Shown here: one piece after another, positions 20,950 to 30,041 of the stretch
Layout: every line of letters begins with the position of its first letter
Position numbering within the stretch: position 1 is the first letter of the stretch
Position numbers and translations under genes: made by a program
The notes under the pieces: model-generated
Database searches by the model: none
What the model was told of the DNA's origin: nothing
The model's input: only the letters and a program-made list of their open reading frames with translations
Assembly (NCBI GenBank): GCA_034716235.1
Contig: JAYEHH010000032.1
Span: forward strand, 370 to 64,369
Source: Patescibacteria group bacterium
GTDB lineage: Bacteria; Patescibacteriota; Minisyncoccia; CAIUEV01; JAHKAQ01
Reading direction: 5' to 3'
DNA length: 64,000 nucleotides

Positions 20950-21219
20950 ATGGCTTATTCATTGGAAAATCCTAAGAGATTTAATAGGATACCCGATCAT
21001 ATTTTTGAGAGAATAGCATATAACGCTTTGAATATGATAGAGAAAGACAAAAAAGCCGAAGCCTTGAAAGTGTTAGAAGATGAAAAATTTAGAAAAAAAG
21101 CTACTCAATTCTGGGAAGGAAAATTTATTGGAGATGATTCAACAAAAGCCGAGATTGAATTGGCAAAGGGATTAAAAATAAGATTGGAAGAAGAGCTTAA
21201 AGACAATGATTTAACTTAA
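20950..21219 (+). CDS. Hypothetical small charged protein
   Basis: 89-aa ORF in an otherwise non-coding gap; no recognised motif. Confidence 0.35.
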   Translation: MAYSLENPKRFNRIPDHIFERIAYNALNMIEKDKKAEALKVLEDEKFRKKATQFWEGKFIGDDSTKAEIELAKGLKIRLEEELKDNDLT

Positions 21220-21243
21220 TAAAGATTATAGATATTTTTTAAA

Positions 21244-21290
21244 CTAAAAAAGCCCGCCTCACTATTTAAAAAAATAGATAAAGCGGACTT
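21244..21290. terminator. Possible bidirectional terminator: imperfect hairpin flanked by A6/T6 runs, between the small ORF and the 23S 3' end
   Basis: aaaaaaGCCCGCCTCACTATTT aaaaaa ATAGATAAAGCGGAC tttttt. The stem is imperfect. Confidence 0.3.
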
Positions 21291-21632
21291 TTTTCAATTC
21301 TCTAAAGTAATATAATCTCCGTAAATTAGCTAAAAACAAATTAATTGCGGTAAACGATCTATTAGTAATGCTTGGCTGAACGTGTTACCACGCTTACACC
21401 TACATCCTATCAACCTCGTCATCTTCGAGGAGATCTAAGCCTAATCTTGGGTTGGGCTTCGCGCTTATATGCTTTCAGCGCTTATCCACATCCGACTATA
21501 GCTACCCAGCAATGCCCTTGGTAGGGACAACTGGTACACCAGAGGTCGATTCATCCCGGTCCTCTCGTACTAGGGATGAGATCCCTCAAGCTTTCTCGCG
21601 CCTATGGAAGATAGGGACCAACCTGTTTTACA

Positions 21633-21664
<32 letters not shown>

Positions 21665-21679
21665 TTGGCGAACAGCCAA

Positions 21680-21726
<47 letters not shown>

Positions 21727-22364
21727 AGTAGCGAACAGCCTCGTCTATATGAGCTATCGGAGGCTACCACTCTGTTATCCCCGGGGTAACTTTTATCTGC
21801 TGAGCTTCCGCGATCCTACGATCCACGGTCGGATCACTAAATCCCGCTTTCGCGACTGCGCGACCTATAAGTCTTGCAGTAAAGCCGGCATCTGCTTTTG
21901 CGCTATCAGTCCGATTTCCATCCGGACCTAGCCGACCTTTGTGAACGACTCCGTTACAATTTGGGAGTCGAGCGCCCCACTCAAACTACCCACCAGACAC
22001 TGTTCCCGAGCTGGTGTTTAGTTACCTCTGGTAAATTTCACTGTTTCACATTTAATCAAGAAATCCCCAAAACATAGCTAAACATCAGCTCAAGGTTAGA
22101 ACTACACGATTCACAGGGTGGTATTTCACTGATGACTCCATCTATCCCAAAGGATAAATCTCAAAGTCTCCCACCTATACTGAGCAATAAATTGTATAGA
22201 TCAATGTCAAGCTGTAGTAAAGCTCCACGGGGTCTTTCCGTCTTTCCATAGGCAAACGGCATCTTTACCGCTACTGCAATTTCACCGGGTCCTTCGTTGA
22301 GACAGTCTCCAAGTCGTTACCCCATTCGTGCAGGTCTGAACTTACCAGACAAGGAAATTCGCTC

Positions 22365-22722
22365 TGTTTTGTTAATCTTTATGTCACCATAAAGCACGGA
22401 CTATATCTTTCCGCTAAATTTAAGTCAAAAAATTTAGGCGGATTCAGCGTTTAGTCTCTGAGGATTCTAAAAATCTTTTTTAGTCTTTCCTGCTGATTAT
22501 CTGGCACCTCGGATCTTTTCCGAGAATTACTGATAACTTTTTTACTTGGCATAGCTTTATAAAAATCTATGGAATAACTATACCATAGTAGTCTCAGATT
22601 TTCCAGATTTTCCAGCATATAGCTGAATGTTTTAGGACATCTTAATAATTTAAGATAGGCAGCGTTAATAATATAATTGTTCCAGTCCTTTTGGAATCTA
22701 AATATTAAATTCCAAAACCTTA
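22365..22722 (-). other. ~357-nt insertion in 23S between AAGGU and AGCGAAAUUCC (E. coli ~1917 region): candidate ORF-less group I intron or intervening sequence
   Basis: Core flanks align with E. coli 23S; the inserted sequence has no rRNA homology and contains internal repeats (cagattttccagattttccag) and hairpins. Confidence 0.5.
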
Positions 22723-22914
22723 GAACAATTATAGTTATTGCTGACGTTCACCGGGGCTTCAGAGATTGGCGTTAACCGCTCTCGTTAACCTTCCGGCACT
22801 GGTCAGGGGTCAGCCCCTATACATCCCCTTACGGGTTAGCAGGGACCTATGTTTTTGATAAACAGTCGCCCGGAGTCTTTAGCTGTGGCCGACGAATGTA
22901 CTGAATGGTGAATC

Positions 22915-23213
22915 CGAACTAGATAATTATCTGGTTCGGATTGTATGTGGGTTATTAATATTTTATTATGCTTTCTAACAAAGCGTTGCTAGGGTGCATA
23001 AAACGGTGACAATCGTCCAAAGTAGAAAGCCTATTAAAGGCATCTCTGCTAGGCCAATTGCCGTGCTCATCATCTTCTTTGTTCTTCCTTTCATATTGAT
23101 CCTCCTCCTCTAATTTCAATTTAAAAAACATAATTTACCCACACTTACCTTTTTTATTTTTTCTCCTTTCCTAAATCCATTTAGATTTCTTGGATTTAGA
23201 TTTTAAAGTTCAA
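22915..23213 (-). other. ~300-nt expansion of 23S helix 63 closed by a 15-bp inverted repeat (gtactgaatggtgaa / ttcaccattcagtac)
   Basis: Flanks align to E. coli 23S ~1700-1750; perfect inverted repeat at 22900-22915 and 23213-23229. Confidence 0.6.
22975..23094 (-). CDS. 39-aa hydrophobic peptide ORF (MKGRTKKMMSTAIGLAEMPLIGFLLWTIVTVLCTLATLC) inside the 23S helix-63 insertion, in rRNA sense, with GGAGGAGGA SD
   Basis: Manual translation of the minus strand: GGAGGAGGAtcaatATG...TAG. Basic N-terminus plus a single transmembrane-like segment, as in type I toxins. Confidence 0.3.
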   Translation of the reverse strand: MKGRTKKMMSTAIGLAEMPLIGFLLWTIVTVLCTLATLC

Positions 23214-24453
23214 TTCACCATTCAGTACACTGTCGGCAGGCCTTATCCCGAAGTTACGGCCGCTATTTTGCCGAGTTCCTTAACGAAGGTTCTCCCGTTC
23301 ACCTTGGGCTACTCGCCCTACCCACCTGTGTTGGTTTAAGTACGGATTAAACCTAAATATTTTCACAAAGCTTTTCCAGGAAGTCTATTCGCTCGAATCT
23401 GTTCCACTTGCGTTTCACATTTTTCCGCACCTTTTAAAAAGATGAAGAAACGTCAAACCATTAAGACGCTCAAGTTAGCTGACTTCGCACTTTGCTACAA
23501 CTTAGATTTAAGTCAAGGAATATTAACCTTGTGCCCATCGACTACGCTTTTCAGCCTCGCCTTAGGACCGACTAACCCTGGGCTGATTATCATCGCCCAG
23601 GAAACCTCAGGTTTTTGGTGGAAAGGAATCTAACCTTTCTTGCGGTTACTCATACCAACATTCTCTCTTCCATTAGCTCCACTAAAACTCACATTTTAGC
23701 TTCACAGCGCATGGAATGTTCTCCTACCCCGCCATACTCTAAAAAGAATATGACAGCCATAGTTTCGGTACTATGTTTGAGCCCCATTATATCTTCGGCG
23801 CGGAACGACTAGACTAGTGAGCTGTTACGCACTCTTTAAAGGAATGGCTGCTTCTAAGCCAACCTTCTAGCTGTTTAAGAAGTTCTACATCCTTTTCCAC
23901 TTAACATAGATTAGGGACCTTAACTAATGGTCTGGGCTGTTTCCCTTTCGTAAATGAAGCTTAGCCCCCACTTACTGACTCGTTAGACTTGTATATTGGA
24001 ATTCGGAGTTTGGTTGAGTGCCCTAGACAAAAGTCATGGATACTCATTCAGTGCTCTACCTCCAATACCAACTATCTAACGGCTATACCTAGATATATTT
24101 CGGAGAAAACCAGCTATCGCCGAGTTCGATTAGCATTTCACCTCTAACCACAGCTCATCCCAGCGTGTTGAACGGCGCTTGGGTGCGGACCTCCACCGCT
24201 TTTTAAGGCGGCTTCATCCTGGCCATGGCTAGCTCACTCGGCTTCGGGTCTGACCCTAACGACAGGGGGCGCCACTTAAGACTCGCTTTCGCTGCGGCTC
24301 TTCCGCCTAGACGGATTAACCAAGCCGTTAAAATCAACTCGTTGGTTCGTTCTGCAAAAAGCACGCGGTCACCGGCTCAAAAAAAACTTGAGCGGGCTCC
24401 CACTCGTTGTAAGCACACGGTTTCAGAAACTATTTCACTTCCCTTTCGGGATA

Positions 24454-24495
<42 letters not shown>

Positions 24496-25401
24496 AAAGT
24501 GTATTTAGTCTTACCGGGTTAGTACCGGCAAATTCACCTGGAATTTCTCTAGTTCCAGGCTACTCAAGATAAAATAACTCAGAGTGATTAATTGTTTTCG
24601 CCTACAGGACTTTTACCTTCTAAGGTAAGCCTTTCCAGGCATTTTTGGCTAACAACTAATGCTTTTTACTCTGCCAATACTAAAAGTTGTAAAAGCACAA
24701 TAAAATTATACTTTTACAATTTCAGTTCGGACGCTATTGAACTTATTACCCTCAGTAAAAACTGAGTTTGGACTTTTCCCCGTTCGCTCGCCGCTACTTA
24801 GGGAATAACTATTGTTGTTTTTTCCTTCGGCTACTAAGATGTTTCAATTCGCCGAGTATGCTTTTTACTCCTATGTATTCAGAGTAAAATTCTATTCAAA
24901 AATGAATAGAGGGTTTCCCCATTCGGAAATTCCCGGATCAAAGCTTGCTTGACAGCTCCCCGAGACTTTTCGCAGCCTGCTACGCCCTTCATCGCCACTT
25001 TGTACCAAGGCATCCACCATATGCTCTTATAACCACAATTTATTAGTGTTTTTAGCTAATTCACAAAGATTATTTGTAAATTAATTGCAATCACTTAAAT
25101 ACCATTTTGCCTAATAATTGTTTTTAACCACAATCTCCAAACAACTATTATTAAAATAAATTGTTAAAGTCCATTATGTGGCCTAAAAGGTAGTTTTTAA
25201 AAATAAAAACCGCTTTTCAAGCCGCTAATTCTTTAAAATAAATTAGACCCAAAAACTAGCCAAGGAACAGCTCTTAATAAATTCTCAATAAAATAATACT
25301 ATAAAAATTATTATAGCAATAAATAAGTTAGTGTCAACTGAATGTAAACCAACCTCTAATCTCTAAATTAATAAATAGACAATTCAGAGCTTATAATTTC
25401 T

Positions 25402-25865: not shown

Positions 25866-27485
<1,620 letters not shown>

Positions 27486-27489
<4 letters not shown>

Positions 27490-28457
27490 TCCAAGGCTAC
27501 CATACCTCCGCTAATTTCTGCCAATTCTGAAGTAATAGCTGCCTGCCTAGCTTGGTTATATTGTAAATTAAAATTATAAATCATGTCGGTGGCTGTATCG
27601 CTAGCATTTTTCATGGTGAGCATTCTCGCTGAAAATTCAGAAGCCTGAGACTCTAGGAAGGCTTGATAAATCTGACCTCCTACTATTTTAGGTAAAATAA
27701 TATCTAAAATCTTTCTTCGGCTTGGCTCAAAGGTGTAATATTTTTGGCTTACTTCCTTTCTAACTTCTTCCATTCCTCCTTTTTCTGGGCCCTCGTCACC
27801 CAATTCTTCCAATTGTTTCTCTAAATCCTTTCTTGAAATTGGAAGAACTTGCCTTAAACGAGGTTTATTGGATACCGTTGAAATAAAATCGGTATAAGCT
27901 ACGATAACTTTATCATATTTTTTTTCGATATAACCATCAATGGCTATTTTAGCAACTGGGTCTAAATCACCAAGGGATGATTGTTCGTTTAACTCGGTAA
28001 AAGAAGCGGTTAAATTTTGACGAGCCTTTAGCATTTCTTCTTGTCCCTTTTTCCCTACGGCGATTATGTCAATCTCCGCCTCGGCAATATCAATTCTTGG
28101 CAAAAACTTTTTCCCCCAAATTCTGTTAACCATCATATTGTAAGGATCTTTAATGTTGGAAAGAACCTTACGGGTTAATTGATAATTTAACCCTCCACAC
28201 AATCCTTTATTGGAAGTAATCAAGATTATGCAAATTTTTCTAGCATCACGAAGTACTAAAAGAGGATGAGCCGTTTTTACCGATTCTGTTATTCTAGTTA
28301 AAATCTCCCAAGCTGTTTGACTATATTCACGCGTAGATACGGCATGGTCAATAATCCGCTTCATTTTTGAAGCAGCTATCATTTCCATCGCCTTAGTAAT
28401 CTTCTTGGTGCTTTTAATTGATTTTAATCTAGCGCGTAATTGCTTGGTATTAGCCAT
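27486..28457 (-). CDS. atpG: F1 ATP synthase gamma subunit
   Basis: MANTKQLRARLKSIKSTKKITKAMEMIAASKMKR N-terminus and C-terminal ...QARQAAITSELAEI typical of gamma. Confidence 0.9.
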
Positions 28458-28496
28458 TATAGGAATGTCTATTGTTAAACTCTTCGTTTGATAAAA

Positions 28497-30041
28497 TTAA
28501 TCTTTACTCTTTTGAGGCGCTGTCATGTCCCCTTCTTTAACTTGGCTTTTTACAAAATCTGCTAAAACTTCCTTAATTTTCTGGTGGCTTTTATCATCTA
28601 AGATTCCTTCTTTCTCTATCTTTTCAATAACTTTATTCAACTTTATTTCAGCAATTTCTAGCCATTGTTTTTCATACTCTTTTACTTTATCTACCTTGAT
28701 TTTATCAAAAGCTCCTTCATTGGTTGCTAAAACGGAAAGCATTTGATGAGACATCTTCATACCATCGCCTTGGTCCTGCTTAATAATTTCCGTTAGTCGT
28801 TTTCCTCTTCTGATTTGCTTCTTGGTAGTTTTATCTAGATCTGAAGAAAATTCAGCAAAGGTTGCCATTTCTCGAAATTGAGCTAAATCCAAACGCATTT
28901 TACCAGCCACTGTTTTAACTGCTTTAGTTTGAGCAGCTGATCCTACCCTAGACACAGAGAGACCAATATTAATTGCCGGCTTAATCCCTTGATGAAAAAG
29001 ATCCGATTCTAAATAAATCTGTCCATCCGTGATAGAAATTACATTAGTAGGAATATAGGCAGAAACATCACCCGCCTGAGTTTCAATGATGGGTAGGGCA
29101 GTCAAGGTGCCACCTCCACTTTTCTCTCCTAGACAAGCAGCTCGTTCTAATAATCTGGAATGGATATAGAAAATATCTCCCGGGTAAGCTTCTCTTCCCG
29201 GTGGCCTTCTTAATAAAAGAGAAATTTGACGATAGCTCCAGGCGTGCTTGCTTAAATCATCATAAACAATCAAAACATCCTTGCCTTGATCCATAAAATA
29301 CTCTCCAATAGCACAACCAGCGTAAGGAGCAATATAAGAAAGGGCTGCTGGCTCAGAAGATCCAGCCAAAACAATAATCGTATGTTTTAAAGCGTCTTTC
29401 TTCTCTAGTTCAGCCACGATTCTAGCCACTTTTGATTTTTTCTGACCGATAGCTACATAGATACAGATACAATTTTGTCCCTTTTGATTAATAATTGCAT
29501 CAATAGCAATGGTTGTTTTCCCCGTTTGTCTATCTCCAATTATTAATTCTCTTTGTCCTCTACCAATAGGAATCATTAAATCAATGGCTTTAATACCAGT
29601 TTGCAAAGGAGCAGTAACCGGTTTTCTGGCAATAACGCCCGGAGCAATTTTTTCAACAGGATAAAATGTTTTACTGGTAATTTCTTCTTTATTATCCAGA
29701 GGACGACCCAAGGGATTAACCACCCTGCCAATCATTTTGTTGCTCACTGGAATTGATAAGACCTTGCCGGTAGATTTAACAATATCTCCAGCTTTAATTT
29801 TGGAAGAATCACCTAGAATAATTGCCCCCACATTGTCTTCCTTCAAATTTAAAACAACTCCATAGATATCATTTCCAAAATCTAAGAGTTCCGAATTCAT
29901 TGCCTCAGGCAACCCAGAAATGACAGCTACTCCATCTCCTATCTCTACAATTTCACCGATTGCCTCAGCCGTTGTCTCTGTTTTTAACTGGCTAATTTCT
30001 TTTTTTAAAAACTCAATGATTTGATCTTTTTGAGAAGCCAT
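28497..30041 (-). CDS. atpA: F1 ATP synthase alpha subunit
   Basis: Walker [12 protein letters not shown]; 514 aa. Confidence 0.95.

Follow-up and report, generated by a model that had tools for sequence, protein, structure and literature searches.

The insert in the 23S rRNA gene examined here is, with a probability that we put at roughly 85%, a HEG-less group I intron at L1931 in the 23S of a Patescibacteria (CPR) bacterium. The intron is 353 nt long, occupies positions 22364–22716 on the minus strand of the window (the whole 64-kb stretch of DNA that was analysed), starts with UUUGGAAUUU and ends with AACAAAACAG. Introns at this site are known in Simkania, Thermotoga, Synechococcus and organelles (PMC1995217). 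Among CPR 23S insertions, 45% have been classed as group I introns and position 1931 (23IS7) is a recurrent LAGLIDADG_1 site, with I-ShaI, an endonuclease from a 23IS7 (1931) intron, having been characterised; the same paper gives no intron secondary structure or exon pairing (PMC11270868). The intron of the window shares with 23IS7 its host group, site, Rfam group I class and LAGLIDADG_1 association, except that the copy described here is ORF-less. Since 23S introns at 1931 are already catalogued in CPR, the present one belongs to a well-documented kind of element. For a CPR 23S gene the intron is ordinary, and it stands out only by an additional guide segment, which base-pairs with the exon sequence of helix 69. 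The annotation as such is routine and adds one more organism to the CPR bacteria, already numerous, whose rRNA genes are interrupted, a condition of importance to both rRNA-based surveys and gene calling.

Host gene, insertion site and ribozyme core

The 23S rRNA gene was located at 21341–25040 by a full-length match to RF02541 (model positions 1–2925, 2318.8 bits). Both the gene and the intron lie on the minus strand, which is a correction of strand to the first-pass annotation. Since the gene measures 3700 nt against a model of 2925 positions, it carries ~775 nt of insertions, and the intron accounts for 353 of these extra bases. The 23S gene is a solitary one, no 16S rRNA, 5S rRNA or tRNA gene having been found in the 64-kb window; its neighbor on the 5' side is an F-type ATP synthase operon (25866–30041, minus strand). 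The best named homologs of the neighbouring AtpD (ATP synthase beta) belong to Candidatus Moranbacteria and other Patescibacteria (81–85% identity), and the host is a Patescibacteria (CPR) bacterium. In domain I, after model position 312, the gene contains a further insertion of ~58 nt that the bacterial LSU model lacks (~24669–24726, minus strand). A c-di-GMP-II riboswitch candidate at 22111–22180 (minus strand) scored 26.7 bits (E 0.013), below the gathering score of 53.5, and falls within conserved 23S sequence; it was dismissed as almost certainly a chance match.

Alignment of the exons showed that the conserved 23S sequence runs to ...GUUCUAAGGU and picks up again at AGCGAAUUUCCUUGUC..., and that only one cut restores the conserved rRNA, namely an intron running from 22716 down to 22364, with a U before it and a G as its last base. 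When the residues of E. coli K-12 rrlB (2904 nt) were counted directly, the flanks, ...CUAAGGU | AGCGAAUUUCC, fell at U1931|A1932. Because the U of AAGGU is residue 1931 and the next A is residue 1932, the site is L1931 and not the "1917-region" to which the insertion had been assigned. A site number of 1925 was also discarded, as it derived from an E. coli O157 rrl copy that is only 2898 nt long. The 1917 label would suit the Coxiella burnetii introns, which, as cited in PMC11270868 and PMC1995217, are located at L1917 and L1951; these are likewise bacterial 23S group I introns of the helix 69–71 region, but they occupy other sites and belong to other intron lineages.

Metagenome contigs were scanned for the rare helix-69 variant of this organism (AACTATAATTGTTCTAAGGT), which yielded 99 loci. 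An intron-less metagenomic 23S allele (L158; FUWD013289706.1), 99.4% identical to the window in exon 1 and 96.9% in exon 2, joins position 22717 straight to 22363 and lacks exactly 22364–22716. It continues for ~180 nt past the 3' end of the 23S, where the spacer is a different one and contains a hairpin resembling a terminator; therefore, it represents genomic DNA, and its being a spliced RNA is excluded. The site of insertion is known to the nucleotide, as are the two ends of the intron. Accordingly, the first-pass annotation had recognised a real insertion but misplaced its ends (22365–22722, ~357 nt), and the flanks that it quoted were right except for exon 2, which here reads GAAUUUCC.

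A search against Rfam returned a match to the group I intron family RF00028 at 22377–22717 (minus strand) with 64.8 bits, compared with a gathering score of 50 (E 4e-14), and the match spans the whole model (positions 1–253 of 253). Its 3' end at 22377 could not be taken as the boundary, being 13 nt short of the true 3' splice site at 22364 established by the exon alignment and the intron-less allele. Group II models, which had been suggested alongside RF00028, gave no match at E≤1 within 21200–25200, and no RNA family other than group I matched the insert at E≤1. The MFE z-score of the insert is −6.1.

All of the core helices from P3 to P9 were located, including the P3/P7 pseudoknot, so that the core pairing and the terminal G anticipated for a group I intron are both present. 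On the minus strand, with intron nucleotides numbered from the 5' splice site, the core displays the following features: (i) P3 is formed by AUUCAGC (22622–22628, nt 89–95) and GCUGAAU (22442–22448, nt 269–275); (ii) P4 is formed by UGCUGG (22612–22617, nt 100–105) and UCAGCA (22491–22496); (iii) P5 (UCUGG/CCAGA) is built around a 98-nt P5 extension (22500–22607, nt 110–217), the latter sharing 76% identity with its counterpart in the HEG-bearing intron L002; (iv) P6/P6a is a hairpin with a 3-nt loop (22462–22490, nt 227–255), at the site that holds a LAGLIDADG ORF in relatives; (v) the 5' strand of P7, GAGACUA (22452–22458, nt 259–265), contains a bulged A260, and its 3' strand, UAGUCC, follows directly on J8/7 (AAAGAUA; together 22398–22410, nt 307–319); (vi) P8 is a hairpin at 22411–22441 (nt 276–306) that shows compensatory differences from the relative L127; and (vii) P9 is a hairpin capped by a GUGA tetraloop (22377–22394, nt 323–340). 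The 13-nt 3' tail, AUUAACAAAACAG (22364–22376), includes a UAACA motif that the intron has in common with its relatives and closes with the terminal G (omega-G, G353) at 22364.

To evaluate the core, 25 ORF-less L1931 introns were aligned and the core structure was projected onto them from the intron of the window. Across P3–P9, 89.3% of the cells were paired, compared with 33–42% in slid controls; changes on both sides were seen in 24 of the 38 pairs, and the covariation score was reached by none of 500 shuffles. Double changes affected five of the seven P3 pairs, and P4 was paired in 100% of cells. Within P7 the G–C pairs are invariant and one pair switches from U–A to C–G. The G261–C318 pair of P7, next to the bulged A260 and invariant in 25 of 25 sequences, is a candidate guanosine-binding site.

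The first-pass annotation had left the choice between an ORF-less group I intron and an intervening sequence (IVS). RNase III-processed 23S intervening sequences are found at hairpin tips (helices 25 and 45), where they are closed by a long stem and are devoid of a ribozyme core; like the intron, they constitute extra 23S sequence that is absent from relatives. An element of that description does occur in the same gene, as implied by the earlier designation of the intron as a second insertion: ~325 nt at ~22901–23225 (minus strand), ~200 nt upstream of the intron in the RNA and at a helix tip at Rfam LSU model position ~1760 (helix-63 region). Its closing stem of ~22 bp is long, its MFE is −112 kcal/mol (z −9.4), it matches no Rfam family, and its interior differs in three relatives with 96% identical 23S (L137, L127 and L177). 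This first insertion has the appearance not of an intron but of an expansion segment or an intervening sequence of the RNase III type, and the IVS description suits it better than the 353-nt insert. The presence of such a neighbor is the one point in favor of regarding the 353-nt insert, too, as an RNase III-excised intervening sequence or a plain expansion segment. We consider this extremely improbable, as the insert scores above the RF00028 threshold, contains a covarying P3–P9 core and is homologous to HEG-bearing introns; moreover, it interrupts a conserved single-stranded junction (1925–1935) and not a hairpin tip, and no long stem joins its ends. The group I alternative is borne out by the RF00028 score, the complete P1–P10 anatomy, the U at −1, the terminal G and the P3–P9 covariation, and also by the existence of HEG-bearing homologs and of an intron-less allele that breaks at the predicted splice sites.

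The missing endonuclease and the relatives of the intron

The earlier remark that the insert contains no long ORF holds. The longest ORF on the RNA strand has 55 aa (22451–22618), ends in ...PDNQQERLKKIFRILRD and gave no Pfam match. It was not accepted as a gene: its ...DNQQERLK... corresponds to the part of an endonuclease frame that overlaps P4'/P6, and all that the 55 aa represent is the two ends of that frame, which coincide with ribozyme helices. A tblastn search over the 64-kb window matched only these two structural frame ends and no endonuclease body. P6 in the intron of the window closes at once with its 3-nt loop, where the relatives hold the LAGLIDADG gene.

Homologous introns of 590–790 nt that contain a single-motif LAGLIDADG ORF were identified at six loci (L002, L055, L111, L041, L030 and L117), and the ORFs of L002 and L055 match Pfam LAGLIDADG_1 at E ~1e-23. 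In these relatives the ORF begins in the P5 region, reads P4'/P6 as ...DNQQERLK..., occupies the loop of P6 and has its end, ...FLESSET..., in the stretch covering P6'/J6-7/P7. Homology of the window's intron to the HEG-bearing L002, L055, L111 and L041 was evident by blastn and in alignment A1, and its ribozyme is 76% identical to that of L002 over 156 nt. The intron is hence an ORF-less relative of the L1931 LAGLIDADG family and not a mobile member of it. In common with the known HEG-bearing L1931 introns, it is inserted after U1931, has a complex P5 region and contains the same P4/P6/P7/J8-7 sequences; its length of 353 nt, compared with 650–700 nt in the known introns, is due to the lack of an endonuclease gene. 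As a separate observation, the LAGLIDADG ORF is located in the P8 loop in L019 and L082 and in the P6 loop in L002, L055, L111 and L041, which means that L1931 introns acquired the endonuclease gene in more than one of their peripheral loops.

Three loci whose 23S is 95–98% identical to that of the window (L127, at 2095–2370, L137 and L177) contain a 276-nt version of the intron. The first 60 nt of this version are identical to those of the 353-nt intron, a short hairpin takes the place of the 98-nt P5 extension, and compensatory changes are found in P5 and P8. The exchange of the P5 extension between such close relatives indicates that the extension is dispensable or easily swapped in this lineage. 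Given that it encodes no endonuclease, the intron is now inherited vertically. A cycle of homing endonuclease gain and loss has been described (PMC1995217), and the intron of the window, the 276-nt version and the intron-less relative form the pattern expected late in it. The occurrence of close relatives with an ORF-less intron and of one with no intron is consistent with the phase of loss in the homing cycle. The lineage thereby offers a clean example of the endonuclease-loss stage: ORF-less at 353 nt, ORF-less at 276 nt and intron-less within one lineage, with the HEG present in more distant relatives.

The 5' domain and the predicted splicing pathway

The 5' domain (minus strand) begins directly after the 5' splice site with P1a, a hairpin at 22690–22716 (nt 1–27). 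It is followed by the 5' strand of P2, AGGAC (22685–22689, nt 28–32), whose partner GUCCU lies at 22634–22638 (nt 79–83). Between the two strands of P2 are three elements: (i) a 12-nt exon-binding guide, E' (UGGAACAAUUAU; 22673–22684, nt 33–44), (ii) the internal guide sequence CGCU|GCCU (22657–22664, nt 53–60), as read from the sequence, and (iii) the P2.1 hairpin (22639–22656, nt 61–78). E' is complementary at 12 of 12 positions to the exon segment E (AUAAUUGUUCUA; 22721–22732, E. coli 1916–1927), which comprises the loop and the 3' strand of helix 69. The internal guide sequence is perfectly complementary to AGGU|AGCG, the ligated junction. Its GCCU half (22657–22660) and the exon residues A1928-G-G-U1931 (22717–22720) make a 4-bp P1 that includes a U1931–G57 wobble and places the 5' splice site after U1931 (22717); the CGCU half, directly 5' of the P1 guide, and AGCG of exon 2 (A1932–G1935, 22360–22363) make a 4-bp P10.

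This 5' domain was evaluated in a second, anchored alignment (A2) of 41 introns with the same architecture (class B, see below). Over the whole domain 97.6% of the cells were paired, compared with 35–48% when slid, the register of P2.1 having been picked to maximise pairing. All five basal pairs of P1a showed double changes across the 41 introns. Compensatory variants of P2 were found as UGAC/GUCA, AGAC/GUCU and GGGC/GCCC; a separate tally of this pair gave 34 for GGAC/GUCC, four for UGAC/GUCA, one each for AGAC/GUCU, GGGC/GCCC and GGAC/GUUC, and two mismatched. The guide motif is kept in all of the 41 introns. Because the exon bases that it contacts are invariant, P1 rests on complementarity and conservation of the motif and not on covariation.

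The E/E' pairing, on the other hand, covaries with the exon across the 41 introns. At the three exon columns that vary, 116 of the 117 cells were paired with E', and none of 10000 shuffles of the exons among the introns matched that value. Helix-69 3' strands reading aacggucc, aaucgucc, aacugucc and aaccgucc are accompanied by the E' sequences GGGACUGUU, GGGACGAUU, GGGACAGUU and GGGACGGUU, respectively, and the strand of this window, aauuguuc, by GGAACAAUU. In the present intron the complementarity of E' reaches nt 50 (22667) with one exon base bulged, which amounts to up to 17 pairs; pairing of that length would come at the expense of the guide sequence and is therefore probably only transient. 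A P1 made from the hairpin that follows the splice site, together with a long exon-complementary segment, was considered and rejected: U1931 would face a 3x3 mismatch, and the base preceding GAC covaries with GUCN' and not with the exon. The GCCU guide was preferred.

In secondary-structure terms the E/E' helix, P1 and P2 cross, and in the model that we propose they would coexist in one fold. The E/E' helix, P1, P2.1 and P2 would meet in a near-perfect four-way junction, with P1a bridging the other ends of P1 and P2.

These features lead us to infer that the intron splices, as the first-pass annotation reasonably supposed, and from the sequence the following pathway may be proposed. E' (12 nt, and up to 17 nt here) would first pair, in the precursor, with the loop and 3' strand of helix 69, open this helix and hold the 5' exon. 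GCCU would then pair with AGGU and bring U1931 opposite G57, at the junction of the E/E' helix, P1, P2.1 and P2, and a free guanosine bound at the G261–C318 pair of P7 would attack the bond after U1931. Subsequently, CGCU would pair with exon 2 to form P10, the terminal G would enter the guanosine site and the exons would be ligated. The ligated junction would read UUCUAAGGU|AGCGAAUUUCC, and helix 69 would refold after ligation.

A comparable problem is posed by the Tetrahymena thermophila LSU intron (L1925), for which Woodson and Cech reportedly described an exon hairpin, P(−1), that competes with intron-exon pairing. In that intron the 3' strand of helix 69 is itself said to be the substrate of a single guide in P1. 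The intron of the window must likewise capture the 3' strand of helix 69; unlike the Tetrahymena intron, it has a separate 12-nt segment to bind helix 69 and a second, 4-nt guide that forms P1 six bases downstream.

Two points are potential weaknesses in this splicing scheme, namely that P1 has just 4 bp and that the E' extension, as seen in the MFE fold, could compete with the guide. The first of these is relevant to the idea that the intron is unable to self-splice and depends on a trans-acting protein, which could be a host factor or a LAGLIDADG maturase whose gene lies elsewhere in the genome. The LAGLIDADG protein of the T. neapolitana L1931 intron has been reported as a maturase or maturase-like protein that aids splicing (PMC3984707), and the intron of the window, which differs in encoding no LAGLIDADG protein, has lost its ORF. 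Nevertheless, no LAGLIDADG gene lies within the 64-kb window, and the intron retains a full P4–P6 with the P5 extension and a GNRA-capped P9, the usual RNA-only stabilisers; we therefore think a requirement for such a protein unlikely.

A further reading, which we judge slightly less likely still, is that the element is a group I intron by descent but is left unspliced and kept in the mature 23S as an expansion near helix 69. This has a precedent, as the L1931 intron of Simkania negevensis is reported to be unspliced according to the title of a study cited in PMC11270868. In the present case, however, the core helices, the guide, the U at −1 and the terminal G are all intact. Compensatory changes keep the helices paired even between relatives with 95–98% identical 23S, and changes of this type between close relatives point to ongoing selection on the ribozyme fold. 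Furthermore, E' covaries with the exon, which would be relevant only if the exon is recognised, and CPR 23S insertions have been reported to be removed from transcripts (PMC11270868). We thus favor the reading of a group I intron that splices.

Class A and class B introns and elements devoid of P4–P6

To place the 5' domain in context, we scanned one genome per species for 23S sequences that run up to U1931 and continue with any base but A, and obtained at least 120 loci. The matches listed were mostly from MAGs of Patescibacteria, with other phyla represented too. L1931 introns were found to have two 5' architectures. Class A introns contain a 7-bp P1 guide (GCCUUAG) a few bases past the splice site. 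This class fits the published description of L1931 introns, which is of introns with no P2 and with a 7-bp P1 (GCCUUAG). Class B accounted for 39 of 121 L1931-type sequences among the matches listed (120 scan loci and this window), and the 5' domain of the window's intron is hence common to at least 38 other introns. The class B order from 5' to 3' is P1a, (N)GACU, E' directed against exon residues 1916–1927, a linker of 7–72 nt, GCU(G/A)CCU, P2.1 and GUC(N'). Thus, unlike the known L1931 introns, that of the window has a P1a, a P2/P2.1 pair, a helix-69-binding segment and a P1 of only 4 bp. No equivalent of E' was detected in class A introns, in which the best 12-nt window gives 7–10 pairs, compared with 12 in 27 of 35 class B introns.

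Our search of the accessible literature gave no description of the class B 5' arrangement, which is weak evidence of novelty. Tentatively, and at somewhat less than even odds, we propose that class B is a structural subclass of L1931 introns, mostly of Patescibacteria, with a two-part guide made of a 12-nt segment that invades helix 69 and a 4-nt P1 guide within a P2-closed loop, organised around a four-way junction, and with sister elements that lack P4–P6. The long guide could allow HEG-independent, site-specific reverse splicing into 23S rRNA. If confirmed, the combination of a covarying intron-exon helix and an embedded guide would be an extra route to a splice site that is buried in a stable rRNA hairpin, and the same 5' arrangement could help to explain how related elements manage without P4–P6. 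The helix-69-binding 5' domain and the P4–P6-less elements of other genomes are the only aspects that deserve follow-up.

The sister elements were observed in other CPR genomes as L1931 elements of 178–254 nt with a class B 5' domain, P3, P7, P8, P9 and a terminal G. The P4–P6 domain is wholly absent from them and a linker of ~9 nt (UAACGAGAG-like) joins P3 to P7. They comprise L034 (1124–1301) and likewise L078, L091, L009, L102, L108, L035, L092, L027, L020, L021, L033, L067, L113 and L086. The Rfam group I model did not match the L034 element even at E≤10, and our literature search gave no description of natural group I introns that are devoid of P4–P6. Covariation was nonetheless seen in P3, P8 and P9 of these elements, with 86.9% of the cells paired compared with 32–43% when slid.

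Two minor observations on class B concern the splice sites themselves. The base opposite U1931 (alignment A2, columns 16 and 49) is A in 21 and G in 20 of the 41 introns, the intron of the window having G; about half of class B would therefore form a U–A pair at this position and not the usual U–G wobble. In addition, three class B introns (L058, L073 and L121) seem to end in U or C, and not in G, before AGCGAA, with boundaries drawn from a simple exon pattern.
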